A stretch of DNA of 64,000 bases from an uncultured Dehalococcoidia bacterium (GCA_964574685.1 CAZNOI010000003.1:53408-117407), one strand, 5' to 3'. Positions 427 through 12,478 are shown, counted from the stretch's first letter. Numbers and translations: made by a program. Notes: a model not told the origin generated them from the sequence alone.

Positions 427-501
427 TCCCCGATAGCTCAACGGTAGAGCGGGCGGCTGTTAACCGCTAGGTTGTAGGTTCGAATCCTGCTCGGGGAGCC
501 A
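427..501 (+). tRNA. tRNA-Asn(GTT): tRNA-Asn (anticodon GTT), CCA encoded
   Basis: Hand-folded cloverleaf. Acceptor TCCCCGA pairs with TCGGGGA; D arm GCTC/GAGC; anticodon stem GGCGG/CCGCT; loop CTGTTAA; T arm GTAGG-TTCGAAT-CCTGC; discriminator G then CCA. Confidence 0.9.
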
Positions 502-2048
502 TTCTGTATGGAAGGTAAAACCCCCACCGTCTCACCGACCCGACCATCCGGAAACACAGGCAGCGTGTACCTCACCGTGACCTCGTCCCTGTCTACGTCG
601 ATTGCCTTGACGAACGACCGCAGGAAGGCCTTGCGCTCCATGATCTCCGAATTCTCCAGCAGGCTTCTGAGGTCCTCGACGTAGGCCTGCACCGCGCCCT
701 CGTCCGTCAGCTCGACCGCGTGGAACAGCAGCGACTCCTCGGCCTCCGATTTCGCGCGCTCCAGTTCCAGCTTGCGGTCGAACAGAGCGTTGATTCTGGA
801 CGACAACTGCGCTGGCTTGTACTCCCCCGTCTCCAGGGCGTCGTACAGCTTGCCCAGCCTCCCCTCGACCTCCCCCATTTGCAGTTGCAGCAGCTCGATT
901 CTCTCGTGCGCCTCCCTGGAAGCGCTCCGCAGCTCGTCATTGACCAGCCCCACCAGCTCGTGCAGGTTCTCATTCGTCAGGATGTGCTGCCTGATCTGGT
1001 CGACGATGAAGCCCTCAATTTTGGCCTTCGGCAGCAGCGGCGTGTCGCAGACATCGCGGCCGCGCCGTCGCGCGTTGCCGCACATGTAGTAGAAATGCCG
1101 CCCCGACTTCACCGCGTGGCCTATCATCGCAGCGCCGCAGTGCCGGCATCTTATCAGACCGCTCAGCGCGTACTCGCTGTGCACCGTACGCGGATGGCTG
1201 ACCCTGGGGGCGCGTTCGCCCAGCTTCTCCTGCGCCTTGGCGAACGTCTCAGCGTCGATGATTGCTGGCCAGGCATTCTCCACCCTCACCGGCGGGCTGT
1301 CGCCATTGCCCAGCTGCCTCTTCTTGCGCTTGTCCCACACCATGACTCCTGCGTATGCCTCATTCTGCAGGATGCCGTGTACAGAGGTTGTGCCCCACTT
1401 CCCGCCCGTCGCGCTGCCCACGCCGTCCCTGTTCAGCCCGCCCGCTATCTCCTTGAGGCCCCGCCCTTGCAGGCACTCCCTGAATATCCGCTGCACCACC
1501 GGAGCGGTCGCAGGGTCCGGCGCGAGCTTGCTTCTGGACATCTCTCCGTCCTGGACGCTCACCCTCTTGAACCCGTAGGGAGTGCGCCCCCCGTTGTGAT
1601 AGCCGCGCGACGCGCTTTCTCTCATTCCCCTGACCACGTCCTGCGACAGGTTGGCCGAATAGAACTCGTCGATGACCTCTATGATCCCTTCGAGGAGCTT
1701 CCCGGAAGGCGTGTCCTCCAGCGGCTCGCTCACCGAGATTACCTGCACGCCGTGCTTCCGCAGCAGGGACTTGTAGACGATTGAGTCCTCGCGGTTCCTC
1801 GCGAACCTGGAGAGCTTCCACACCAGGATAGTGTCGAACCGTGGTGGCTTTTGCCTCGCAGCGGCGATCATTCGCTTGAAGCCCGGCCTGTCGATGGAGC
1901 GCCCGCTCTCCGCCTCGTCGACGTACTCCCGCACCACCTCGTGCCCGTTGCGCGAGGCCCACTCCCTCAGCGCCTTGAGCTGCGCCGAGATCGACAGGTC
2001 CGTGTCCTGCCTGTCCGATGACACCCTTGCGTACAAAGCGACGTTCAT
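438..2048 (-). CDS. large serine recombinase / integrase
   Basis: N-terminal resolvase catalytic domain: MNVALYARVSSDRQ with Ser nucleophile, then ...TILVWKLSRFARN. Large C-terminal recombinase domain with Cys-rich zinc ribbon (CRHCG...YYMCG) and coiled coil. Start taken at MNV (2048), overlapping the upstream gene by ATGA. The 3' end overlaps the tRNA. Confidence 0.85.
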   Translation of the reverse strand: MNVALYARVSSDRQDTDLSISAQLKALREWASRNGHEVVREYVDEAESGRSIDRPGFKRMIAAARQKPPRFDTILVWKLSRFARNREDSIVYKSLLRKHGVQVISVSEPLEDTPSGKLLEGIIEVIDEFYSANLSQDVVRGMRESASRGYHNGGRTPYGFKRVSVQDGEMSRSKLAPDPATAPVVQRIFRECLQGRGLKEIAGGLNRDGVGSATGGKWGTTSVHGILQNEAYAGVMVWDKRKKRQLGNGDSPPVRVENAWPAIIDAETFAKAQEKLGERAPRVSHPRTVHSEYALSGLIRCRHCGAAMIGHAVKSGRHFYYMCGNARRRGRDVCDTPLLPKAKIEGFIVDQIRQHILTNENLHELVGLVNDELRSASREAHERIELLQLQMGEVEGRLGKLYDALETGEYKPAQLSSRINALFDRKLELERAKSEAEESLLFHAVELTDEGAVQAYVEDLRSLLENSEIMERKAFLRSFVKAIDVDRDEVTVRYTLPVFPDGRVGETVGVLPSIQNGSPSRIRTYNLAVNSRPLYR

Positions 2049-2893
2049 CGTGCCCCTCCGTTCCGTGGTAACGCGATCTCGCTGATGTCCCATGTCCCGT
2101 TGCCGTCCAATGCAGAATTGCCGCCGTGCACATAGCAGTAGTCTATTGAGTCGTAGTCGTTCATCTCCAACATTTCCACAGTCGCCTGCACCGCGTCGGC
2201 CTCTGCTCCCATGTAACCCGTAGTAAGCAGAATCAGGAACGTGCTTGTTGCGCCTCGCCGCTTGGCCTCTTCCAGTTGGTCGTCGGCATCTTTCACGTTC
2301 TTGTTGAACTGGTCAAACGCCTTACCGCTCAAGGCGTGTGTGTGGCCATTGTAGAACTGATTCACCGCATCTGGGTTCAGGAATGAGCCATCCTCCTTCC
2401 ACTTGCGCAGCGTCACCCAGAAGTCATGAGGCAGTCGGTCCGATAGCTTGCCCTGCAAGTCGCCAGTGAGGTCTACTTCATCACCCAAGGCCATATCTCT
2501 TGATCGCGTCGCAATGACATCACGGAGGGCATCCCGGAGCAGCATTCTGCCGTCCCTCCTCAAGTCCAGGGCGACTAGGTCGGACACGTTCATCGACCAG
2601 ATGAATGTGCCTGACAACTCTCCGGACACAGCCTCCGCCACTTCGCGGCATATCGCTTCCAGTAGCGACGTCTGTTCGTGCAGCGCCGCATCAGTTAATC
2701 TCTTGACCTCAATGGCTACCTCGTCTCCCGTACCGGTGTCCTTGGCTACCCAGTCCGGGTTCTTCTGGCCCTGCTCCGGTTGGCCGTGCACGTCTGTGTA
2801 GCGCCCTACGAGTTCGATCGCCGTGCCATGTGTCTCGTTGTGTAGCTGCAAGACCCGCTCTACATACGACCGCTGCCATTCCTCATCTGCCAT
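2045..2893 (-). CDS. hypothetical protein, translationally coupled upstream of the recombinase
   Basis: 283-aa ORF from MADEEWQRSYVERV... No recognisable motif. Its stop overlaps the recombinase start (ATGA). Confidence 0.5.
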   Translation of the reverse strand: MADEEWQRSYVERVLQLHNETHGTAIELVGRYTDVHGQPEQGQKNPDWVAKDTGTGDEVAIEVKRLTDAALHEQTSLLEAICREVAEAVSGELSGTFIWSMNVSDLVALDLRRDGRMLLRDALRDVIATRSRDMALGDEVDLTGDLQGKLSDRLPHDFWVTLRKWKEDGSFLNPDAVNQFYNGHTHALSGKAFDQFNKNVKDADDQLEEAKRRGATSTFLILLTTGYMGAEADAVQATVEMLEMNDYDSIDYCYVHGGNSALDGNGTWDISEIALPRNGGAR

Positions 2894-3064
2894 CGTTGCC
2901 CCTCTCAACCGTAGCCTCCGGCGCATTTTAGCACATTTGTTCCATAAATGCAAGTATTTAGTACATGATTTTCACCAACGAGCTTCAAGACTGCTCCGCC
3001 CCGTGACATTCTCCGGTTGACCGTGTCCGACATCTGTTGATACCCTGCGCCACAGGAGCAAGAA

Positions 3065-3310
3065 ATGGTCAAGGCACGCACACCCGTACATCTCAAGGTC
3101 AACAGCGTCGCCGTCTGGAACTACCTCACTAGGCGCAACCTCGCCCAGAACGAGCTTGCCAAGCAGCTCGGCATCAGCACTGGCTACATGGCCCAGCTCA
3201 TCAGCGGCAAGAGAAGCCCGTCGCCCGCGCTTCGCCGCCGCATGCTCGAAACACTCGCCCCTCTCTCCTTCGACGACCTCTTCCAGGTATCAGAGAGGGA
3301 CGCCCTGTGA
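3065..3310 (+). CDS. XRE/Cro-like HTH transcriptional regulator
   Basis: NLAQNELAKQLGISTGYMAQLISGKRSPS is a typical XRE HTH. Divergent from the recombinase operon, a classic int/regulator layout. Confidence 0.7.
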   Translation: MVKARTPVHLKVNSVAVWNYLTRRNLAQNELAKQLGISTGYMAQLISGKRSPSPALRRRMLETLAPLSFDDLFQVSERDAL

Positions 3311-3458
3311 CGACCCTGCGCCAGGAGACGACGCCCGCCCCCGCCCTCGCACACGACGAGCCGTACGAGGGACTTCGCATCCTCGCCCGCATGATCGCCC
3401 GCGCCCACCTCGCCCGCACCGAGATCCCCGCCGACACCGACGCCAGCGGAGACCGCTG

Positions 3459-4106
3459 ATGCCCCGCCGCTGGTCCAGCCCCCAGACCCGAGCCTGGGCG
3501 TACCGCTATCTTGTCCTTCGGGACGGCGAGAAATGCGCCCTCTGCGGCAAAGTCCCGAAGAACACTTATTCCCTCGACATTGACCACATTGATCGTGACC
3601 CGACTAACACCTATCCCCACAATCTGCGCCTTCTGTGCCGCTCGTGCAACGTAGCTGAGGAGAACCGCAAACGCCCAAGTGACGCTGTGTGTGTGGGTGT
3701 GAAAGGCAGGGAGAGGCCGGGGACGAGGATAGCCAGGGACGTGGTGCCGTACTACGAAGGAAGCCCGGAGATGCAGGCGAACGCCCTTTTCGAGGTGCGC
3801 TATCGCCACTGGCTGCAGGGCTTCATAGACGCCCGAGGCTTCATACCGAAGAAGGAGGCCGTGAACGCTGGGGCTGAGGCCGTGGGGTGCAGCCCCGCGA
3901 CCGCGGCAAGGTACCTGGCCAAGCTCACGTCCTATCTAGGCCCACTGAAGGAGACCAAGGACATGCTGGGAGAGCCGGTGGTGACATCGAGGGCGGACGA
4001 CGGAGATTGCCCCCCAGGCTGTCCGTCGCAGGGGGAGGAACTGGCCCGCCGCCGTGGTGGGCGTCTAGCAGAGCCATCAAGCGACGGTGGTGAGGCCGAC
4101 GACTGA
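3459..4106 (+). CDS. HNH endonuclease (phage-type)
   Basis: CALCGK...LDIDHIDRDPTNTYPHNLRLLCRSCN (CxxC...DH...N...CxxC). The listed ORF 3156-4106 has a low-complexity Arg/Pro N-terminus. The in-frame ATG at 3459 is the plausible start. Confidence 0.7.
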   Translation: MPRRWSSPQTRAWAYRYLVLRDGEKCALCGKVPKNTYSLDIDHIDRDPTNTYPHNLRLLCRSCNVAEENRKRPSDAVCVGVKGRERPGTRIARDVVPYYEGSPEMQANALFEVRYRHWLQGFIDARGFIPKKEAVNAGAEAVGCSPATAARYLAKLTSYLGPLKETKDMLGEPVVTSRADDGDCPPGCPSQGEELARRRGGRLAEPSSDGGEADD

Positions 4107-4630: not shown

Positions 4631-4758
4631 CCTCGCCTGCTCCACGGCCCGAGTGGGTACTTCAGTGTACTTGCGTGCACCTCGGATAAGCTGCGTACTA
4701 TTGACAAAAACCCGCCTGGCCTATAACGTTTTCTCAAACAGCTGTGGGGTGGCTACGT

Positions 4759-5811
4759 ATGTTCACACTTCTCGACCTCTTCTGCGGAGCTGGCGGCATG
4801 ACGGCTGGCTTCGTCGATGCCGGATTCGTACCCATCTTCGCGGTGGACAGCTGCAGATGGTCCGTGGACACCTACAATGCCAATTTCGGACACCATGCCA
4901 CGTGCACGCCGGTCGAGGATGTTGAGCATTTCCCCAAAGCCGACGTCGTGATCGGTGGCCCCCCTTGCCAGGGATTCAGCAACCTTGGCAAGCGTCTTCC
5001 CTTTGACCCGAGGAATCAGCTGTGGCGCCACTTCGTACGCGCGATTGCGGCCGCGCAGCCCTTGTACTTCGTAATGGAGAACGTGCCAGAGCTGCTCAAG
5101 TCCGCCGAATATGAAGCGTTGAAAGCTGAGACCGAGGGCCTCGGGTATGAAGTTGACGGTCAGGTTCTGATCGCCGCCGACTACGGCATTCCTCAGACGC
5201 GCAAGCGTAGCTTCGTTATAGGCTCGCGCGTCGGGCCACCACTGTTCCCGGTGCCCACCCACCGGCGCCCTGACGAAGTCGACTTGTTCAATCTCCACCT
5301 GCCCCCCTGGCGGACGGTCAGGGACGCGATCGCGGACCTCCCACTTGTACCGACCGACTTCGACTGGCACATCGGCCGCAATCCTACTACGATGTCATTG
5401 GAGCGCTATCGTCACGTCCCCGAGGGAGGGAACCGATTCGATCTTCCCACGCACCTCCAGCCGCCGTGCTGGATACGGAAGACAAAGGGGGGAACCGACC
5501 TGTTCGGCCGGCTGTGGTGGGACAGACCTGCGTATACCATTCGGACTGAGTTCTTCAAGCCCGAGAAAGGACGCTACCTCCACCCCCAGGCCGACCGCCC
5601 GATAACCCATCGGGAGGCGGCGCGTTTCCAGACCTTCTCGGATGATTTCACGTTCTGCGGTTCGAAGATTGAGGTCGCCAAGCAGATAGGCAACGCGGTT
5701 CCGTCCCTGCTCGCTCGCAGGATCGCCGAGGCTGTTAGAGAAGCCGTTGGGGATGCTCAACTCACGAGTGCGTCGACTCAGCCCACTCGCGCAGTATGTC
5801 CAACGCAGTGA
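4759..5811 (+). CDS. DNA (cytosine-5)-methyltransferase
   Basis: Motif I LDLFCGAGGMTAGF, motif IV GGPPCQGFS, motif VI MENVPEL, motif VIII QTRKRSF, motif X GNAVPSLLA. Confidence 0.9.
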   Translation: MFTLLDLFCGAGGMTAGFVDAGFVPIFAVDSCRWSVDTYNANFGHHATCTPVEDVEHFPKADVVIGGPPCQGFSNLGKRLPFDPRNQLWRHFVRAIAAAQPLYFVMENVPELLKSAEYEALKAETEGLGYEVDGQVLIAADYGIPQTRKRSFVIGSRVGPPLFPVPTHRRPDEVDLFNLHLPPWRTVRDAIADLPLVPTDFDWHIGRNPTTMSLERYRHVPEGGNRFDLPTHLQPPCWIRKTKGGTDLFGRLWWDRPAYTIRTEFFKPEKGRYLHPQADRPITHREAARFQTFSDDFTFCGSKIEVAKQIGNAVPSLLARRIAEAVREAVGDAQLTSASTQPTRAVCPTQ

Positions 5812-6406
5812 GCTCCGGTGGCTGCCCGGTCTCTTTCGACCTTGCCTCCAATGCCTTCATGACCTTCTTCGGCAGGTGAACGACTAGCTGTAGTGGCAGC
5901 TTCTCAGGGAAGGCCAAGGGGCATTCGCTGCAGCTCTCTCTCCGGCATGTAGCACACTCGCGCCTCTTTCGGATGTTGCAGGATGTGCACGTTGTCTGCA
6001 GGTTGCTGTCATCATCAGCGCCGTAGCGAATGAGCGGCACCTTGTGGTCTATGGTGGGACTGGGCTTGCCGGGGTCGTCGCCTACCTGTACAAGACAGAG
6101 CTGACACACATACCGGTCACGTGCATATATCCGCCTTCGCTGCTTGGCGCTGGGATATCTGCGGACCAGACGAGGCCTCACCGGCTCGGCTGACGTCCTA
6201 CGATAGTGCCACTGGCCGTTTATGTTCGACCTATCGATGTCGAAGCCGTACTCATCGCGAAGCTGCGCGATACGACGACGGTAGTCGCTCTGCCCGCTTA
6301 TCTTCAGCATTTCCTCTCGAGACACCCACTCGCCTACCGGTAGTGCGTCCAGGAACGGCTGAAGATGCTGTGGTACCGGGTCGACCCCTTTGCGGTTGCC
6401 TCCCAA
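5762..6406 (-). CDS. HNH-family restriction endonuclease (R subunit of Type II R-M), convergent with the methyltransferase
   Basis: VCQLCLVQ...IDHKVPLIRYG...NLQTTCTSCN HNH core plus extra CxxC pairs. The 3' end overlaps the methyltransferase gene by 50 bp. The controller gene lies immediately upstream. Confidence 0.6.
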   Translation of the reverse strand: MGGNRKGVDPVPQHLQPFLDALPVGEWVSREEMLKISGQSDYRRRIAQLRDEYGFDIDRSNINGQWHYRRTSAEPVRPRLVRRYPSAKQRRRIYARDRYVCQLCLVQVGDDPGKPSPTIDHKVPLIRYGADDDSNLQTTCTSCNIRKRRECATCRRESCSECPLAFPEKLPLQLVVHLPKKVMKALEARSKETGQPPELTALDILREWAESTHS

Positions 6407-6408
6407 GT

Positions 6409-6648
6409 CTACTCTTCTCCCTCGACTGCCGACTGAAAGAACGACATCGACTTCCCGTATGCGCGGGCGAACTCCACCAACTCCACGAAGTCAACGCGTC
6501 GCTCGCCAGACTCGCACTTAGATATGTACGACTGAGACCTGCCAAGGCGCTTCGCGGCCTCTGCCTGAGTCAAACCGGCTTCCAGTCGCGCTCGCCGCAG
6601 GCTGGCGACAAGACTCTCGTATGATTGCCTGTCTTCACCCCGCTTCAT
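6409..6648 (-). CDS. controller (C) protein-like XRE HTH regulator of the R-M system
   Basis: 80 aa from MKRGEDRQS.... LEAGLTQAEAAKRLGRSQSYISKCESGERR is an XRE HTH. Its stop codon is 3 bp from the endonuclease start (C-R operon). Confidence 0.6.
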   Translation of the reverse strand: MKRGEDRQSYESLVASLRRARLEAGLTQAEAAKRLGRSQSYISKCESGERRVDFVELVEFARAYGKSMSFFQSAVEGEE

Positions 6649-6819
6649 GACCGTGTCTGCTCTGACCAAGAACGGCATTATCCCATTCTGGAATAGATAT
6701 CCCAAATTGGAATATCGCGCCCTCCGCATTGAGTCTCAGACACGCAGCGGGTCGTACCATGTGGTGTGAAATGCCGACAAGTGGCAGAATAGGGTGGACC
6801 ATGTCACCATGGGGGCCGC

Positions 6820-7521
6820 ATGACTGCTCAAGACAAGGGTGCACACGACCTGGACCAGCTTGCGGTTGACCAATTCCGGCAGGTTCTAGTCCTGTGGTTC
6901 CGCGCTCACGGTCGGGACCTTCCCTGGCGGCGCACACGTGATCCCTACGCGATTCTACTGTCGGAAGTGCTGTTACAGCGGACGCAGGCCTCTCAAGTCG
7001 CGGCCCACTTTGATTCGATCATCTCCGCAATTCCGACTATCACTTCACTCGCTGGTGCCTCGGAGCAAGACATCCGTGTAATCTTAGCGCCGCTGGGCCT
7101 TGCCAAACGCGCAGGTACGCTCCGCGCCATGGCGGTTGACATCATTGAGCACTACGATGGCTCTGTCCCGTCGAATGTCAACTCTCTTATGGCACTGCCC
7201 GGAGTCGGCCGCTACATCGCTTCGGCGACTGCCTGCTTCGCGTTCGGTGCCAAGACGCCGGTACTAGATGCGAACGTCATCCGTATCCTCAGCAGGTACT
7301 TCGCCGTGGCTTCCGCCATCAAACGCCCGCGATATGACAACCGGCTCTGGAGTGCAGCGGCAGACATCTTGCCGGAATCCGACTACGTCGATTTCAACAG
7401 AGCGCTGATTGACTTCGCTTCTCTTGTCTGCACCGGCCGACGGCCTGGCTGCCTTGACTGCCCACTACGTTCTACCTGCCGGAACGCCGTCGACGCCCTT
7501 ACCCGATTGTCTGAGACTTGA
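6820..7521 (+). CDS. EndoIII/MutY-family HhH-GPD DNA glycosylase with [4Fe-4S] loop; context suggests a Mig-type T:G mismatch glycosylase
   Basis: LPWRRTRDPYAILLSEVLLQRT; HhH LPGVGRYIASA; catalytic VLDANVIRILSR; C-x6-C-x2-C-x5-C (CTGRRPGCLDCPLRSTC). 233 aa, EndoIII-sized. Lies adjacent to the C5-methyltransferase. Confidence 0.75.
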   Translation: MTAQDKGAHDLDQLAVDQFRQVLVLWFRAHGRDLPWRRTRDPYAILLSEVLLQRTQASQVAAHFDSIISAIPTITSLAGASEQDIRVILAPLGLAKRAGTLRAMAVDIIEHYDGSVPSNVNSLMALPGVGRYIASATACFAFGAKTPVLDANVIRILSRYFAVASAIKRPRYDNRLWSAAADILPESDYVDFNRALIDFASLVCTGRRPGCLDCPLRSTCRNAVDALTRLSET

Positions 7522-7591
7522 CAAGACGGGCCTCCTGGCGTATTTACTTACATGTTCGGCACCGGTTCATCGCCGACACAAGGAGACAACC

Positions 7592-9556
7592 ATGACCGAA
7601 GAGGACAGGGCGCTCTACCTGAGGTTCCATGGTCGGATACTAGAGCATTTTGGCATCCAGACTTACCAAAGCCCGGTTGCCGCCATCGCGGAGCTTGTGG
7701 CGAATTGCTGGGACGCGGATGCAAGTGAAGTGCGAATAGTGCTTCCGGCGAACTTGGGGGACAATGCCACCATCGAGATACTGGACGACGGTATCGGCAT
7801 GACATTCGATGAGTGTCAAGAACGCTACCTAAGCGTTGGTCTGAACCGGAGGGCCAATGACCCGGATGAACGTTCGCCGGAGAAGAGGAGACCGATCTTG
7901 GGCCGCAAGGGAATAGGCAAGTTCGCTGGCTTCGGCATTGCAGAAACCATGCGCATCTCAACGACCAGCAAGCAGACGGGCGAGGCGACCGTGTTCGAGC
8001 TTCGTCTACCTGACCTAATCAGCGATGAATACGTAAGCACCAACGATAAGCCTGTCGACATCGTTGAGCATAGGTCTCCCGATGACCAACGCAAGTTGGA
8101 GCACGGCACTGTTGTGACACTATCGGGGCTCAAGCTCGGAAAGACTCCGTCGCCCGACGCGTTCGCCAAGAGTATGGCTCGTCGTTTTCTGCTCCTCCAG
8201 CAGCAGGCCGACTTCCGGGTGCTTGTCAATGATCAGGAGTTGCCCAAATCCTTCGACTTGCAGGACGTGCAATACGTGTTTCCCCGCGACTACAAATCTG
8301 AGGAGATGCCCGCCGATCTTGAGACACAAGACATTGAACTCTATGGCGTGGAGAAGCTATCCAACGACCGTAAGATCCGATGGCAGTTCTGCTTCCACAA
8401 TGATACGATTGACGACGAGGAGCTGCAGGGTATTGCTATCTTCGCCAAGGGGAAGCTCATCCAGGCCCCATTCCTTTTCAATCTCAGCGGTGGTCTCGGC
8501 GGTCAACACGGGGTAGCCTATCTGTCTGGTCAAGTCCAGGCGGACTACCTTGACTCGCTCTCCGTGGACCTTGCCGCTACGGAGCGTCAGAGGGTCAACT
8601 GGGAGCATAGAGAGAGCGCCCCACTGCTGGAGTGGGGGCAGACCAGGATCAAGGAGCTCCTCAGGACTTGGCAAGACCGCCGAGGTGAGCAGAGAACTCG
8701 CATGCTTGATCAACGCGTGTCCGGTTTCTCATCGAGGTTGGGCAGACTACATTCACCTGAGCAGCGAACGGTCTCCAAAGCTTTGAGGAAGCTTGCCCAA
8801 GTTTCCACACTGAATGATGCACAATTTGAAGACCTCGGAAACGCGGTACTCACCGCGTGGGAAGAGGGACGCCTCAGAGGACTCATTGACCAGATTGCCC
8901 AAGCTCAGACCATGTCCGAGGAAGACCTCCTCAGCGTCCTCCTGGAGGCACAGGCGCTCACGGCTCTCAACGTGGCAGAAGCAGTCCGAACCAAGCTCCA
9001 GACTGTGGCTGGCCTGATACAGCGTATAGAACGCCGTGAGCTCGAAACAGCTGTACGCGACTACATAGCGAAGAACCCTTGGCTTATAGCTCCCCAATGG
9101 GAAACCTTCCGCAAGGAGACTACTGTTAAGCACCTCCTAGATCAGGCCGCCGGGCAGGTCGGTTTCACCGACAACGAGTTCAACGGTCGTGTCGACCTCG
9201 CACTCGCGAGCGGCAATCACCTGCTTGTTCTCGAATTCATGCGACCAAGCCTTACCCTCAATTGGGACCATCTACAACGCTTCGAGAGATACGTCCTGAA
9301 TATACGGGGCAACATAGACGCCAACACCGCTGGCGTTTTCAGGCGCGTCACTGGTTACGTAATAGCAGACAACCTTGAGGCTCGGTCGGATAATCGCGCC
9401 AAGATTACTTCTATGGTCAAAGAAGACATGTACGCCCTCGATTGGCGCTCCCTCTTCAGCCAGGCCCTTGCCAAGTGGCAGGAGTTCCTTGACATACTCG
9501 TCTCACGGGCTCCGGAGGACGAGCGTCTGCAGGCTCTACTCCAGCCTCCCGACTAA
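7592..9556 (+). CDS. MORC-like GHKL (HATPase_c_3-type) ATPase with long C-terminal region
   Basis: ELVANCWDADASEVRI (N box), IEILDDGIGMT (G1), GRKGIGKFAGFGIA (G2-like). C-terminal part contains NPWLIAPQW...GRVDLAL...LLVLEFMRPS, which resembles a restriction-endonuclease-like core. RBS AGGAG before ATG 7592. Confidence 0.75.
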   Translation: MTEEDRALYLRFHGRILEHFGIQTYQSPVAAIAELVANCWDADASEVRIVLPANLGDNATIEILDDGIGMTFDECQERYLSVGLNRRANDPDERSPEKRRPILGRKGIGKFAGFGIAETMRISTTSKQTGEATVFELRLPDLISDEYVSTNDKPVDIVEHRSPDDQRKLEHGTVVTLSGLKLGKTPSPDAFAKSMARRFLLLQQQADFRVLVNDQELPKSFDLQDVQYVFPRDYKSEEMPADLETQDIELYGVEKLSNDRKIRWQFCFHNDTIDDEELQGIAIFAKGKLIQAPFLFNLSGGLGGQHGVAYLSGQVQADYLDSLSVDLAATERQRVNWEHRESAPLLEWGQTRIKELLRTWQDRRGEQRTRMLDQRVSGFSSRLGRLHSPEQRTVSKALRKLAQVSTLNDAQFEDLGNAVLTAWEEGRLRGLIDQIAQAQTMSEEDLLSVLLEAQALTALNVAEAVRTKLQTVAGLIQRIERRELETAVRDYIAKNPWLIAPQWETFRKETTVKHLLDQAAGQVGFTDNEFNGRVDLALASGNHLLVLEFMRPSLTLNWDHLQRFERYVLNIRGNIDANTAGVFRRVTGYVIADNLEARSDNRAKITSMVKEDMYALDWRSLFSQALAKWQEFLDILVSRAPEDERLQALLQPPD

Positions 9557-9589
9557 ACAGACTGAACCTTCCTTCAGGAGGCCTTTCCC

Positions 9590-10426
9590 ATGGCCTACGT
9601 AATCCTCACTCAGAGAGTCCCTCCCGACGACTACCGGGACGAGATCGGCACACTGTACAACTACCCTCGGCGATACTGGAGGCGACTCTACACAGGCGAT
9701 CGCATGATCTATCACCAGCCGCGCGATCGTTCAAACGGAGGAATGGTCTATTTCGGATGCGGTGTAGTCGGAGACATCCAACCCGACCCTCACGACCCAA
9801 ACCGGCGTAACGCAGAGATCGTCGACTACACAGCCTTTGAAAGGCACGTTCCCGTCACGCGTCGGGGCCGGTTTCTTGAGCCTGCCATCAATAGGCAGGT
9901 CGACATGGTAGGCAACGCAGTTCGCACTATTGATGAACCGACCGCTCTCGCCATCCTGAGTGCTTCTCATACGCAGCCCCCATGGGCTTGGCTGCCCACC
10001 GGTGGGACCGGGGCACCACCATCGTCGCCTACTAACGAGGCGGACCTGCGGCGTGCTATTGACACCTTCGACCAGCACTATGCAAGCCTGGCCCCCGAGC
10101 GCCGTGCGCGCACGCTATCGACGCTTCATCGCCCATCATCCATAGGGGCATACCTGAAGCAGCTCTACGGCACCAGATGTCGCATCTGCGGCGTGGACGG
10201 TTTCCTGCAGAGAATCGGGACCTCCTATGCCGAGATTCACCACGTCGATGAGCTCAGCACTGAACACCCCGGAGTTCTCGGCACGCAGAACATCTTGATC
10301 CTCTGTCCTACCTGTCACAGAAAGCTCCATTTCGCGAACGTCACTGTCATTCCCACTTCCTTGGGCTGGGACATGACCATCAATGGTCGGCATGTCGCCG
10401 TCCAAAGGATGCATAGCCCCGCCTGA
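9590..10426 (+). CDS. HNH endonuclease with about 190-aa N-terminal domain of unknown type (possibly modified-base/DNA binding)
   Basis: C-terminal CRICGVDG...AEIHHVDELS...NILILCPTCH HNH motif. N-terminal region YVILTQRV...YNYPRRYWRRL...MVYFGCGVV has no motif I can name. Starts 34 bp after the GHKL gene, same strand. Confidence 0.7.
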   Translation: MAYVILTQRVPPDDYRDEIGTLYNYPRRYWRRLYTGDRMIYHQPRDRSNGGMVYFGCGVVGDIQPDPHDPNRRNAEIVDYTAFERHVPVTRRGRFLEPAINRQVDMVGNAVRTIDEPTALAILSASHTQPPWAWLPTGGTGAPPSSPTNEADLRRAIDTFDQHYASLAPERRARTLSTLHRPSSIGAYLKQLYGTRCRICGVDGFLQRIGTSYAEIHHVDELSTEHPGVLGTQNILILCPTCHRKLHFANVTVIPTSLGWDMTINGRHVAVQRMHSPA

Positions 10427-10860: not shown

Positions 10861-11100
10861 ATGGCTGATTTGGATAAGGAGATCAAGAGAATAGAAGCGG
10901 GCGACGCCTGGGACGAGAGCGATGAAGTCGTCCGGGTAGAAGTGAAGAAGCCTCTGGACAAGGTGATCCCCGTGCGGCTCTCGGCGGACAAGTGGGAGGA
11001 GCTGAGGAAGGAAGCCACTGAGCTTGGCATCGGTCCGACGACCCTTGCCCGGATGTGGATACTGGAGCGTTTGCGACTTGGGACGAAGGCCGGAGTCTAG
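10861..11100 (+). CDS. RHH/CopG-like (BrnA-type) antitoxin-like protein, orphan
   Basis: IPVRLSADKWEELRKEATELGIGPTTLARMWILERL is a ribbon-helix-helix antitoxin-like sequence. No toxin ORF adjacent. Confidence 0.5.
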   Translation: MADLDKEIKRIEAGDAWDESDEVVRVEVKKPLDKVIPVRLSADKWEELRKEATELGIGPTTLARMWILERLRLGTKAGV

Positions 11101-11149: not shown

Positions 11150-11353
11150 CAATGGGGACTTTCAGTCTATCCAACACTTCGGTCAGTTCCCTCTCCCTCT
11201 AAGGGAGAGGGTCAGGGTGAGGGTGCGTAAATGCATGCGGCTTAAGAATGGTGCTGCGGCGGTTGTTCGCCTCACTCCGGCTTTCTCCCCTTTGGGGAGA
11301 GAGGGGATGGTTTCGCTTTGGTCAGTGCTGCCCTCTCCCTCTAAGGGAGAGGG
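11150..11353. repeat. cluster of three GC hairpin repeats (REP/MITE-like family), locus A
   Basis: CCCTCTCCCTctaAGGGAGAGGG at 11189-11211 followed by tcAGGGTGAGGGTGCG. TCTCCCCtttGGGGAGA at 11284-11300. A second CCCTCTCCCTctaAGGGAGAGGG at 11331-11353. Lies between convergent gene ends. Confidence 0.6.
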
Positions 11354-12478
11354 TCAGGCGGCCGTGTGCGCGGCGGTCCGGCAGCGGGCAGCCTCTGCTG
11401 TGTACTCTGCAATCAGGGATTGCATGAGTTCGCTGACCGATATGATGGTGTCCACGCGATAGGCGTTGGCCCCGGCGAAGGCGAAGCCGTTCCTCATGTT
11501 ACCCCTCTTCGCGTTGGCCAGCGCCAGCGCGATACAGTAGCTGGACTTCTCGAAATCACAGGTCTTGAGGCACTTCCAGGGGCACTTGAACGGCTTCCTT
11601 GCACCTGCAGCCACTTCATCGAGGAACCGGCTCCTGATGGCCCTGCCGGGCAGGCCGACCGGGGAGTCGATGATGGTCAGGTCCCCCTCTTTGCAGTTCA
11701 CATATGCATCTTTGAACTGCGTTGCCGCATCACATTCGTATGTCCCCACGAACCTGGTCGCCATCTGAACGCCCTTCGCGCCAAGCTCCATGAACTGGAA
11801 CATGTCCGCGCCTGTGTAGACTCCGCCCGCTGCGATAACTGGGATGCTCTTCCCGAAGCGTTGCTCGTAGGGCTCAATGGCGGAAATTGCGTCCATCAGT
11901 ATGTTCTTCAGTGAGTAGGCGGGATCGTCGATCTGTTCTCTCTTGAACCCGAGATGCCCTCCGGCCAGAGGGCCTTCCACCACGACAGCATCCGGCACGT
12001 GATTGTAGCTCCGCGCCCATTGCTGGAAGACGATCCTGGCTGCTCTTGCGGAGGATATGATCGGGACTACCCTGGTCGCCCCCTGTGTAAGGCGGTCGAT
12101 GGCAAGTGCGTCGGGTTTCTTGGCGAGTCCCGCCCCGAGGAAGACCAGGTCGGCGCCCTCATCGAAGGCGGTCTCGACCAGTCCATCATAGTCGTTGAGA
12201 GCTACCATTACGTTCACACCGATTATGCCCTTGGTAACGTCCCTCGCTTTGCGTATCTCGGCGCGAAGCGCACGTTTGTTGGCCTCTCTGGAGTTGGTCA
12301 TGAAGTCGGACTCGTGAAGCCCGATTCCGGCGGTGGCAATGACTCCGATCCCACCTTCATTCGCGACGGCGGAGGCCAATCGGGAGAGGGAAATGCCTAC
12401 CCCCATTCCTCCCTGGACTATTGGAATACTTGCTTCCAGGTCACCAATTCGAAGCCCTGGAAGTCCGTTAAGTCTCAT
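11354..12478 (-). CDS. nitronate monooxygenase / FabK-like enoyl-ACP reductase family (NPD) protein
   Basis: IVQGGMGVGIS...GGIGVIATAGIG... and overall NMO-family (FMN TIM-barrel) fold, with a Cys-rich C-terminal extension. Confidence 0.75.
   Translation of the reverse strand: MRLNGLPGLRIGDLEASIPIVQGGMGVGISLSRLASAVANEGGIGVIATAGIGLHESDFMTNSREANKRALRAEIRKARDVTKGIIGVNVMVALNDYDGLVETAFDEGADLVFLGAGLAKKPDALAIDRLTQGATRVVPIISSARAARIVFQQWARSYNHVPDAVVVEGPLAGGHLGFKREQIDDPAYSLKNILMDAISAIEPYEQRFGKSIPVIAAGGVYTGADMFQFMELGAKGVQMATRFVGTYECDAATQFKDAYVNCKEGDLTIIDSPVGLPGRAIRSRFLDEVAAGARKPFKCPWKCLKTCDFEKSSYCIALALANAKRGNMRNGFAFAGANAYRVDTIISVSELMQSLIAEYTAEAARCRTAAHTAA

Follow-up and report, generated by a model that had tools for sequence, protein, structure and literature searches.

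Related systems

Restriction-modification (R-M) systems of the kind represented by gene 1 of the present locus were reportedly described in 1991 and 2008 (R.HgiDII and paraMORC3). R.HgiDII and R.BbrUII are SalI-isoschizomer type II restriction endonucleases (REases) paired with m5C methyltransferases (NCBIfam NF050001), and R.HgiDII has a GHKL N-domain (PMC2441816). The paraMORC3 architecture (Iyer, Abhiman & Aravind 2008) consists of GHKL, S5 and RecB-like nuclease domains and is associated with Dcm and Vsr (PMC2292703). VcSduA, a Shedu protein of type I-D (Adams et al. 2025), functions without a methyltransferase. VcaM4I combines an EVE fold, a helical linker and an HNH domain and acts alone as a type IV enzyme (PMC7897488). 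Enzymes of the VcaM4I/TspA15I type usually have no methyltransferase neighbour; EVE-HNH enzymes favour 5hmC and come into no more than mild conflict with Dcm, and less than 6% of the PUA-nuclease fusions in the literature lie within 3 kb of a DNA methyltransferase (PMC6765204). HNH genes have already been noted in paraMORC and RR-like neighbourhoods (Iyer et al. 2008; PMC8011034), the RR-like/HEF_HK paraMORC systems comprising C5-methyltransferase, Vsr and HNH genes (PMC8011034).

The gene pair and its island

The window, which is the whole 64-kb stretch of DNA analysed here, comes from an uncultured Dehalococcoidia bacterium. The original prediction had read two of its genes as a new defence system made of a MORC-like GHKL ATPase and an obligate HNH partner. 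Gene 1 (7592..9556, + strand, 654 aa) is annotated as a GHKL-ATPase restriction endonuclease of the paraMORC3/R.HgiDII type; its start is the ATG at 7592, which lies inside the ORF 7409-9556 with AAGGAGA just 5' of it. Gene 2 (9590..10426, + strand, 278 aa), whose start is preceded by AGGAGG, is annotated as an EVE-like reader plus HNH endonuclease with a type IV, modification-dependent architecture. The two genes are co-directional as described, the gap being 33 bp (9557-9589) instead of 34 bp, and no terminator-like site was seen within it. They are probably co-transcribed in the window, and their juxtaposition is probably local and not an obligate partnership. All motifs quoted for gene 1 (ELVANCWDAD, DDGIGM, GRKGIGKFAGFG and GRVDLAL...LLVLEFMRPS) and for gene 2 (CRICG, EIHHVDEL and NILILCPTCH) are present.

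The surrounding region is a mosaic defence island. Its left boundary is a large serine recombinase (438..2093, - strand; Pfam Resolvase, Recombinase and Zn_ribbon_recom), the 3' end of which overlaps a tRNA-Asn gene (427-501, + strand; ARAGORN). For the right end, a search for a second copy of the tRNA 3' end in direct orientation gave nothing. The GC content is 0.56-0.58 over 6-10 kb, compared with 0.60-0.63 in the flanks.

The pair does adjoin an R-M system, as had been claimed. A Dcm-type C5-cytosine DNA methyltransferase (4744..5811, + strand; Pfam DNA_methylase 1.4e-59, TIGR00675, PADLOC DruM2/MTase_II) is the sole Dcm in the window and is likely the modification partner of gene 1 and/or of a 214-aa HNH protein (5762..6406, - strand). 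The gene of the latter runs towards the Dcm gene and overlaps it. Its product resembles a REBASE type II restriction enzyme family (Pfam HNH 1e-8; PADLOC REase_II PDLC03478 1e-40, the PADLOC match spanning nearly the whole protein), and is a second candidate REase that competes with gene 1 for the window Dcm; no homolog of it was found in the 80 metagenome loci of gene 1 relatives. Upstream of this gene lies that of an XRE-type HTH protein resembling a controller (C) protein (6409..6729, - strand; Pfam HTH_31 2e-14, HTH_3 1e-13; PADLOC Control_protein 2e-4). The divergent promoter region (6730-6819) was searched for the inverted repeat of a C-box, and none was found. The last member is a short MutY/Nth-like HhH-GPD glycosylase of 233 aa (6820..7521, + strand), which lacks the MutY C-terminal half, matches TIGR01084 mutY at 4e-57 with a score below the cutoff, and matches PADLOC PDLC03398 'Type II nicking endonuclease' at 6e-41. 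It likely serves the m5C system as its 'V' gene for the repair of T:G mismatches, replacing Vsr.

Gene 1 and its methyltransferase neighbourhood

The N-terminal part of gene 1 comprises a GHKL (Bergerat) ATPase and an S5-like middle domain (7664..8611, + strand; residues ~25-340), with a match to Pfam HATPase_c_3 at residues 29-146 (E 7e-20). The ATP-binding motifs are intact as in paraMORC3, both DxGxG and the G-rich loop being invariant (E34, N38, D65, G67, G69 and G104-G109 in 55 homologs). A Foldseek search with the AF2 model (pLDDT 82) gave MORC2, MORC3 and MORC4 as top matches, and also TRAP1/Hsp90 and SMCHD1, with E ~1e-13 over 400-450 columns. Together with the HATPase_c_3 match, this bears out the MORC-type GHKL fold that had been proposed. 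A housekeeping MutL, Hsp90 or GyrB identity was rejected on the weak N-terminal matches, which fall far below cutoffs, and on the island context.

The C-terminal part (9032..9553, + strand; residues ~481-654) is a probable RecB-like PD-(D/E)xK nuclease domain with Met for the canonical Lys. Its modelled topology is alpha-beta-beta-alpha-beta, and E485, D535, E548, R563 and Y567 are invariant. The domain has no significant Pfam or PDB sequence or profile match; the Foldseek search was made at full length, where the GHKL module dominated the matches and the tail fold was not separately searchable. The PD-(D/E)xK-like tail suggested at the outset is corroborated by a 34%-identical paralog (in L007), which reads RRVD..VVVVELKRP..QLEDY in the aligned columns and so has the canonical D..ELK..QxxxY. 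Gene 1 appears to share the order of GHKL, S5-like and C-terminal RecB-like PD-(D/E)xK domains with paraMORC3 and VcSduA, but differs from them in having Met at the ExK lysine and R563 at the RecB 'Q' position. Because Met (M550) replaces the catalytic Lys in 54 of the 55 homologs, the cleavage chemistry of gene 1 is not assured. A Shedu DUF4263 identity of the tail was rejected, with nothing significant by Pfam, PDB profile search or PADLOC: Pfam SduA_C matched 1 of 17 C-domains of gene 1 homologs (E 0.086) and not that of the window, and PADLOC gave no SduA or Shedu match for gene 1, which separates it from VcSduA.

The alignment with the BbrUII/HgiDII family model (NF050001) spans the full length, residues 15-634 being matched to model positions 8-643. 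Because the score of 296 bits is below the cutoff of 550, gene 1 is, as judged from its sequence, a sister group of BbrUII/HgiDII, a relative and not an equivalog. PADLOC assigns it to REase_II (8e-43). Among its relatives, Dcm adjoins the gene in all of the 10 genome loci, abutting or overlapping it, and of the 80 metagenome loci, 66 contain Dcm, 44 Vsr and 7 a Mig-like glycosylase. One of the seven glycosylase loci (L029) has the order Dcm, glycosylase, GHKL gene, the same as in the window. The stop and start codons of Dcm and the gene 1 relative often overlap. The partner conserved with gene 1 is a C5-cytosine methyltransferase, to which a T:G-repair gene, either Vsr or a short MutY-like glycosylase, is usually added, and the Dcm/Vsr neighbourhoods described for paraMORC also surround the gene 1 relatives.

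Gene 1 is like R.HgiDII and R.BbrUII in the full-length alignment, the N-terminal GHKL domain and the pairing with a C5 methyltransferase, and an m5C methyltransferase does lie nearby in the window; the difference is that it is located 1.8 kb upstream, with three genes between. The window Dcm is 50-52% identical to the Dcm of two gene 1 relatives (L043 and L049), 37% to that of L029, and only 33-37% to most partner methyltransferases of gene 1's REase family. The view that this Dcm is foreign to gene 1, which arose from the 33-37% identity to the partners in the 10 genome loci, is weakened by the larger set, in which the partner lineages vary and L043 and L049 have a Dcm closer to that of the window.

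Gene 2 and its genomic contexts

Gene 2 begins with a PUA-superfamily, EVE-like sensor domain (9590..9979, + strand; residues 1-130) and, beyond linker helices at residues 150-193, contains an HNH nuclease domain with a Cys4 zinc site (10169..10339, + strand; residues 194-250), which Pfam HNH matches at residues 197-247 (E 6e-7). A set of 12 homologs shares C197, C200, C239 and C242, together with H217, H218, N234, H243 and H247, without exception; the canonical HNH had been recognised correctly (Cys4 plus HH..N..H). The suggestion of an EVE/SRA-like reader of modified bases in the N-domain holds up; structure prediction gave an EVE-like fold (AF2 model, pLDDT 74). Foldseek found VcaM4I as the best match (2e-5), followed by TagI, ScoMcrA and EcoKMcrA. 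The PDB sequence search found the EcoKMcrA HNH (1e-7), and the PADLOC scan at E<=1 gave mREase_IV, a weak ZorE and REase_II.

An N-terminal EVE-fold sensor, a helical linker, an intact C-terminal HNH and a length of about 280-310 aa are common to gene 2 and the VcaM4I/TspA15I group, but the sequence identity is 10-15% and the Pfam EVE model has no direct match in gene 2. Gene 2 also resembles EcoKMcrA and TagI in two-domain layout and length, and its HNH sequence is closest to EcoKMcrA, whereas its EVE-like reader is unlike the McrA-specific N-terminal 5mC-binding fold or the SRA domain of TagI. Elsewhere the reader domain is fused to NOV_C, McrB-like AAA_5 and GmrSD_N, which are typical type IV modules, and most of its fusion partners are of this classic kind. 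In 3 of 149 relatives (P0204, P0247 and P0281) it is fused to GHKL/HEF_HK (HATPase_c_3) proteins.

Of the 12 gene 2 contexts analysed, 10 have a Dcm no more than 8 kb away, the distance being 3 kb or less in 6-7, and at least 7 have Vsr or an HhH-GPD glycosylase; the sample is small, with about 7 independent lineages from IS-rich metagenomes. A tight same-strand order of Dcm, Vsr and gene 2 homolog is found in about 3-4 loci (L021, L022, L023 and L027), and one context (L018-L020) has no Dcm. Some GHKL protein is present in 6 of the 12 contexts, while the homologs in L003, L005, L006, L018 and L027 have none nearby. The homologs occur beside DISARM-like systems, other GHKL systems and systems without GHKL, always at the edge of the partner system and sometimes on the opposite strand or separated by an IS (L004, L007 and L024); a neighbour from gene 1's GHKL family is found in the window only. 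Scans of JGI metagenome contigs and viral contigs yielded no gene 2 relatives. The homologs of L021-L024 sit in RR-like/HEF_HK paraMORC loci, and P0204 is itself a HEF_HK GHKL protein with a fused gene 2-type reader domain. The window differs from these systems in that it has no HEF_HK or Response_reg_2 and that its GHKL protein is of another family, with its own nuclease.

Gene 2 homologs that are 77-81% identical flank methyltransferases just 23% identical to each other, and the methyltransferases beside near-identical homologs in general belong to unrelated lineages (23-35% identity). On this ground, a role for gene 2 as the type II REase that goes with the adjacent Dcm was rejected. The absence of a cognate methyltransferase nearby, which in genomes is the hallmark of modification-dependent enzymes (PMC6765204), does not hold for the gene 2 family, which, unlike the VcaM4I/TspA15I-type enzymes, is habitually found beside C5 methyltransferases. 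Because of the Dcm frequency and the Dcm-Vsr-homolog order, set against a base rate below 6%, mere chance is an unlikely reason for independent systems to lie together, and gene 2 probably has some functional connection with m5C systems.

Discussion

From the domain assignments, the conserved catalytic residues and the neighbourhood statistics observed here, we infer with some confidence that gene 1 is an m5C-methylase-paired, ATPase-driven restriction enzyme and gene 2 a stand-alone modified-cytosine nuclease, and that they are independent neighbours. The island would then carry two independent restriction functions. Dcm, the glycosylase and gene 1 would form an m5C R-M unit of the R.HgiDII/paraMORC3 type, in which the glycosylase may mend T:G mismatches arising from m5C deamination. 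Gene 1 may dimerise in an ATP-dependent manner through its MORC-like GHKL-S5 module and clamp DNA, and its RecB-like nuclease would cut DNA that its partner has not methylated. Gene 2 would be a self-sufficient type IV enzyme, whose EVE-like domain may capture a modified cytosine (5hmC, 5mC or similar) by base flipping, after which dimeric HNH domains would cut nearby. It would thereby cover phages that evade cytosine-targeted R-M by cytosine hypermodification.

The original prediction, an obligate and undescribed two-gene system analogous to Septu in which the ATPase senses or loads and the HNH cuts, is now highly improbable. It had been staked beforehand on the two genes being kept as neighbours across genomes, and this pairing exists in the window only: none of the 90 loci of gene 1 relatives (10 genome and 80 metagenome) holds a gene 2 homolog, despite the same Lys-to-Met change, which could in principle require an outside nuclease. 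The families also differ in size (more than 1300 homologs of gene 1 versus 21 proteins in the gene 2 family). The shared direction, the narrow gap free of terminators and the GHKL proteins in half of the gene 2 contexts would fit such a pair, but gene 2 homologs are also found where GHKL neighbours are lacking, and each of the two architectures is known to work by itself, as VcSduA (PMC12137116) and as VcaM4I (PMC7897488), the latter a solo enzyme with the very EVE-HNH architecture assigned to the supposed obligate partner, which is the second outcome that the prediction had named beforehand as counting against it. Membership in Septu or Tiamat was dismissed as well: at E<=1 PADLOC gave gene 1 as REase_II only, with no TmtA, PtuA or PtuB match, and gene 2 as mREase_IV. 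The obligate two-gene model is largely refuted by the neighbourhood data already. It is also doubtful, if less so, that gene 1 is a Shedu-like stand-alone nuclease of the VcSduA kind (type I-D), with the GHKL domain sensing infection and Dcm serving the 214-aa HNH REase alone. The GHKL, middle and PD-(D/E)xK architecture (PMC12137116; 10.1101/2023.08.10.552793), some relatives without detectable Dcm in their 5-kb flanks (L045 and L047), and the overlap of the window Dcm with a separate C-protein and HNH REase module speak for it. Against it are the Dcm genes that adjoin the great majority of relatives, in many cases so closely that stop and start codons overlap, a full-length match to the HgiDII/BbrUII REase model and not to SduA, and the single marginal SduA_C match among the C-domains.

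A rather less improbable alternative, which we regard as tentative, is that gene 2, instead of acting by itself as a type IV enzyme, serves as an accessory part of defence systems built on a C5 methyltransferase (paraMORC/GHKL, DISARM and others). The m5C mark set by the methyltransferase next to it would be recognised by the EVE-like domain of gene 2, whatever the sequence specificity of that methyltransferase; the mark could bar the HNH from self DNA or steer it, or gene 2 could take part in methyl-directed nicking with a MutL-like GHKL protein and Vsr or glycosylase, analogous to MutH-MutL-Vsr. The frequency of Dcm and of repair genes in the contexts, the tight same-strand loci, and the recurrence of the association with unrelated methyltransferases beside near-identical homologs all argue for this, as do the low base rate for PUA-nuclease fusions, the reader fusions to HATPase_c_3/HEF_HK proteins and the HNH genes known in paraMORC and RR-like neighbourhoods. 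However, no locus of gene 1's own family among the 90 has or needs gene 2, the gene stays at system edges and is at times inverted or IS-separated, one context has no Dcm, the reader is fused mostly to classic type IV modules, and the lineages are few and IS-rich. A further idea, that the family is a distinct EVE-HNH class repeatedly recruited to C5-methyltransferase defence, as a sequence-independent self-mark reader or as a methyl-directed nickase with MutL-like GHKL proteins and Vsr or glycosylases, seems to us unlikely.

On the preferred reading of two independent neighbours, the apparent new GHKL plus HNH system is not to be counted as a new system, because both of its architectures have been described. 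The locus nevertheless draws attention to the families themselves. An entire HgiDII-like GHKL subfamily has lost the canonical nuclease lysine and kept its tight methyltransferase pairing, which invites the question of their mode of cleavage. The family with an EVE-like reader and HNH departs from the rule by which DNA methyltransferases are not found near PUA-nuclease fusions, and the occasional reader fusions to HEF_HK-type GHKL proteins hint that certain paraMORC systems, themselves poorly understood, may have m5C reading as an integral part.

Gene Calls and Layout of the Pair

The GHKL ATPase gene with a nuclease-like tail (gene 1) and the reader and HNH gene (gene 2) were both confirmed by ORF scan and translation, and every motif string quoted for them in the original prediction is present in the translations. 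Gene 1 occupies 7592–9556 (plus strand, 654 aa); its most plausible start is the ATG at 7592, which has AAGGAGA in front of it. Gene 2 lies at 9590–10426 on the same strand (278 aa, AGGAGG upstream). A spacer of 33 bp without any terminator-like site separates them; the two genes are probably co-transcribed in the window.

ATPase and Nuclease Tail of Gene 1

Residues 29–146 of gene 1 match Pfam HATPase_c_3 (7e-20). For its AF2 model (pLDDT 82), the top PDB matches are the ATPase modules of MORC2, MORC3 and MORC4, followed by TRAP1/Hsp90 and SMCHD1 (E ~1e-13, 400–450 columns), so the proposed "MORC-like GHKL" assignment was right. Homologs are numerous (more than 1300 matches, the best 120 being 53–63% identical), and E34, N38, D65/G67/G69 and G104–G109 of the ATPase are invariant among 55 of them. 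Against the NCBIfam "BbrUII/HgiDII family restriction enzyme" model, gene 1 aligns end to end and scores 296 bits; the model cutoff being 550 bits, it is a relative, not an equivalog. The N-domain of R.HgiDII was noted as GHKL by Orlowski and Bujnicki (PMC2441816). PADLOC assigned gene 1 to REase_II (8e-43), with no match to Shedu, Septu or Tiamat.

In the tail (residues ~481–654, window 9032–9553), E485, D535, E548, R563 and Y567 are invariant. The canonical "ExK" lysine of the PD-(D/E)xK motif is replaced by Met in 54 of 55 homologs (EFMRP), and the glutamine of the RecB "QxxxY" by Arg in the subfamily (RFERY). A 34% identical paralog (L007:10004–11932, on a contig that also carries a gene 2 homolog) reads RRVD...VVVVELKRP...QLEDY at exactly aligned columns, keeping ELK and QLEDY. 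The tail is thus homologous to the RecB-like D...ExK...QxxxY nuclease, with K to M and Q to R changes; the predicted PD-(D/E)xK-like relationship stands, and the canonical lysine does not. Across the whole REase subfamily, these changes reflect either catalytic-residue migration or a non-canonical active site. For DUF4263 membership of the tail, neither a Pfam match nor a PDB sequence match was obtained. Iyer et al. defined paraMORC3 as GHKL, S5 and RecB-like nuclease domains in Dcm/Vsr neighborhoods (PMC2292703), and the paraMORC3-like VcSduA gives defense alone (Adams et al., PMC12137116).

Putative Reader Domain and HNH of Gene 2

The HNH called in gene 2 is borne out by Pfam (residues 197–247, 6e-7); its nearest sequence match is the EcoKMcrA HNH (1e-7), with TagI next, and PADLOC returned mREase_IV. 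The family has only 21 proteins in a 5.8-billion-cluster database, in which the Zn-Cys and HNH catalytic residues are all invariant. The AF2 model (pLDDT 74) comprises a beta-barrel-like N-domain (1–130), a disordered stretch, linker helices (150–193) and the HNH. Foldseek placed the EVE-HNH enzyme VcaM4I first (2e-5), then TagI, ScoMcrA and EcoKMcrA; the N-domain alone retrieved EVE proteins, THYN1-5mC DNA, YTH and ASCH, and gene 2 itself has no Pfam EVE match. The arrangement is that of VcaM4I (EVE 1–147, linker 148–178, HNH 179–309), which acts alone, as a dimer, and captures 5mC/5hmC by flipping it into an EVE pocket (PMC7897488).

Searched with phmmer against 1.84 billion representatives, the N-domain gave 326 clusters. 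Among the best 149 of these, the Pfam census counted NOV_C (38), HNH (12), McrB-like AAA_5 (4), EVE (4), HATPase_c_3 (3), GmrSD_N (1) and SRA (1), which is the domain repertoire of a putative modified-base sensor such as type IV enzymes employ. Three representative proteins (P0204, P0247 and P0281) are large GHKL proteins with the reader fused N-terminally. Of these, P0204 (1137 aa) combines reader, HATPase_c_3, HEF_HK and HATPase_c, the same paraMORC kind that adjoins gene 2 homologs in loci L021–L024.

Island Around the Genes

Both genes sit within an island with a large serine recombinase gene (438–2093, minus strand) on its left, whose last ~20 codons overlap a tRNA-Asn (427–501, plus strand). 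This overlap probably marks the island's attachment end; a downstream repeat of the tRNA-Asn 3' end was looked for and not found. Between the recombinase and Dcm genes lie a 302-aa ORF without family match (2045–2953, minus strand) and a 316-aa HNH protein (3156–4106, plus strand) with weak PtuB, ZorE and homing-endonuclease similarities. The Dcm-type C5 methyltransferase gene (4744–5811, plus strand) is convergent with and overlapped by the gene of a 214-aa HNH protein (5762–6406, minus strand; PADLOC type II REase model, REBASE-derived, 1e-40), upstream of which is an HTH controller-like gene (6409–6729, minus strand). These two would make up a further candidate REase for the Dcm, and they interrupt the HgiDII-like unit between its M and V/R genes.

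Next comes a 233-aa MutY/Nth-like HhH-GPD glycosylase (6820–7521, plus strand; PADLOC "type II nicking endonuclease", or V gene, model, 6e-41), short and without the MutY C-terminal half, followed on its right by gene 1 and gene 2. The glycosylase gene resembles a Mig-type T:G repair ("V") gene. Such short glycosylases recur in GHKL-REase and DISARM-like loci, and occupy Vsr's usual place beside C5 methyltransferases in the window and at L005:10250–10990, L006:14148–14711 and L029:1365–2009. GC content is down to 0.56–0.58 across 6–10 kb, and housekeeping genes begin at ~11.35 kb, right of gene 2. Downstream of gene 2, a 79-aa ORF (10861–11100, plus strand; …VIPVRLSADKWEELRKEA…), also called on Logan contig L001 and without Pfam assignment, looked like a candidate antitoxin or ribbon-helix-helix protein. 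In the interval from the island to the NMO gene, a 22-nt partly palindromic element (CCCTCTAAGGGAGAGGGTCAGG) has two exact copies (11195–11216 and 11337–11358) at a distance of 142 bp; none is expected by chance, and it may be a REP-like element or an island boundary.

Neighborhoods of Gene 1 and Gene 2 Homologs

In 10 genome loci with gene 1 relatives (46–55% identical), the GHKL gene always has a Dcm gene abutting or overlapping it, and Vsr is present in five. Among 80 metagenome loci (31–62% identical), 66 have Dcm, 44 Vsr, seven a Mig-like glycosylase and none the 214-aa HNH. A gene 2 homolog occurs in 0/10 and 0/80, which goes against the obligate GHKL and HNH system originally proposed. 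L029 holds the closest of the relatives examined (62%) and shows the same Dcm, glycosylase, GHKL order; the window additionally has the C-protein/HNH pair inserted after Dcm. The partner methyltransferases belong to several lineages, most being 46–61% identical among themselves and 33–37% to the window Dcm. Those of L043 and L049 are 50–52% identical to it, so the window Dcm may be the cognate methylase of gene 1; the 214-aa HNH REase also has a claim on it.

Twelve distinct contexts of gene 2 were read, including the window, where Dcm, glycosylase and gene 1 stand beside it. The homolog follows Dcm, unknown genes, Methyltransf_35 and Vsr in L003, Dcm and Vsr in L021/L022 and L023 (convergent with Response_reg_2 and a HEF_HK GHKL protein of ~1000 aa), and Vsr and Dcm in L027. 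In L024 the same kind of Response_reg_2/HEF_HK system lies 3–7 kb away. The homolog is convergent with Vsr-Dcm-364 aa-GHKL (733 aa) in L004, and in L007 it is followed by an IS element, GHKL (642 aa) and Dcm. L018–L020 have IS elements and a UvrD-like helicase without Dcm, and L026 is an uninformative contig edge. In L005 and L006 the homolog precedes Dcm, convergent with HhH-GPD-PLD-MZB-helicase-SNF2; these DISARM-like loci (L005:9259–16840, L006:9593–16840; MZB/DUF1998) join a C5 methyltransferase, 49–52% identical to the window Dcm, with the glycosylase and the gene 2 homolog.

Dcm is thus near gene 2 homologs in 10 of the 12 contexts and a GHKL protein in six, spread over four architectures; gene 1's own family adjoins only in the window. 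The L003, L004 and L027 homologs are 77–81% identical and their flanking methyltransferases only 23%, while those of L005, L006, L007 and L024 (72–90%) are flanked by DISARM-like, paraMORC3-like and HEF_HK systems. This mismatch indicates that gene 2 is a mobile module, set again and again at the margins of diverse C5-methyltransferase systems without co-evolving with a particular one.

Interpretation

We consider it the simplest reading, and a fairly probable one, that the window co-locates an m5C restriction-modification unit of HgiDII/paraMORC3 type and an autonomous EVE-HNH type IV enzyme, the activities of both being inferred. The unit would consist of Dcm, the T:G glycosylase as V gene and gene 1 as R, and gene 2 would complement it: cytosine-targeting restriction selects for phages with hypermodified cytosine, which the EVE-HNH enzyme would cut. 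A preference for 5hmC and a tolerance of Dcm are documented for EVE-HNH enzymes (PMC6765204), and this would explain how such a sensor can sit next to C5 methyltransferases whatever their specificity. The chief alternative makes gene 2, as a reader of its partner's mark, a genuine accessory of m5C-based systems. It is supported by the linkage to methyltransferases and by the rare fusions of reader to GHKL; we hold it to be rather unlikely. Of 350 PUA-nuclease ORFs surveyed by Lutz et al. (PMC6765204), fewer than 6% have a DNA methyltransferase at a distance of up to 3 kb, a base rate that makes the gene 2 family unusual in this respect. An obligate GHKL and HNH pair is very improbable, since the pairing is not conserved and the gene 2 N-domain matches a stand-alone type IV architecture.

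Each of the two proteins is a new, divergent representative of a kind already described, and the proposed cassette is not a new system. The remaining interest lies in the K to M nuclease motif across the REase subfamily, in an EVE-HNH family linked to methyltransferases and in the fusions of the reader to HEF_HK.
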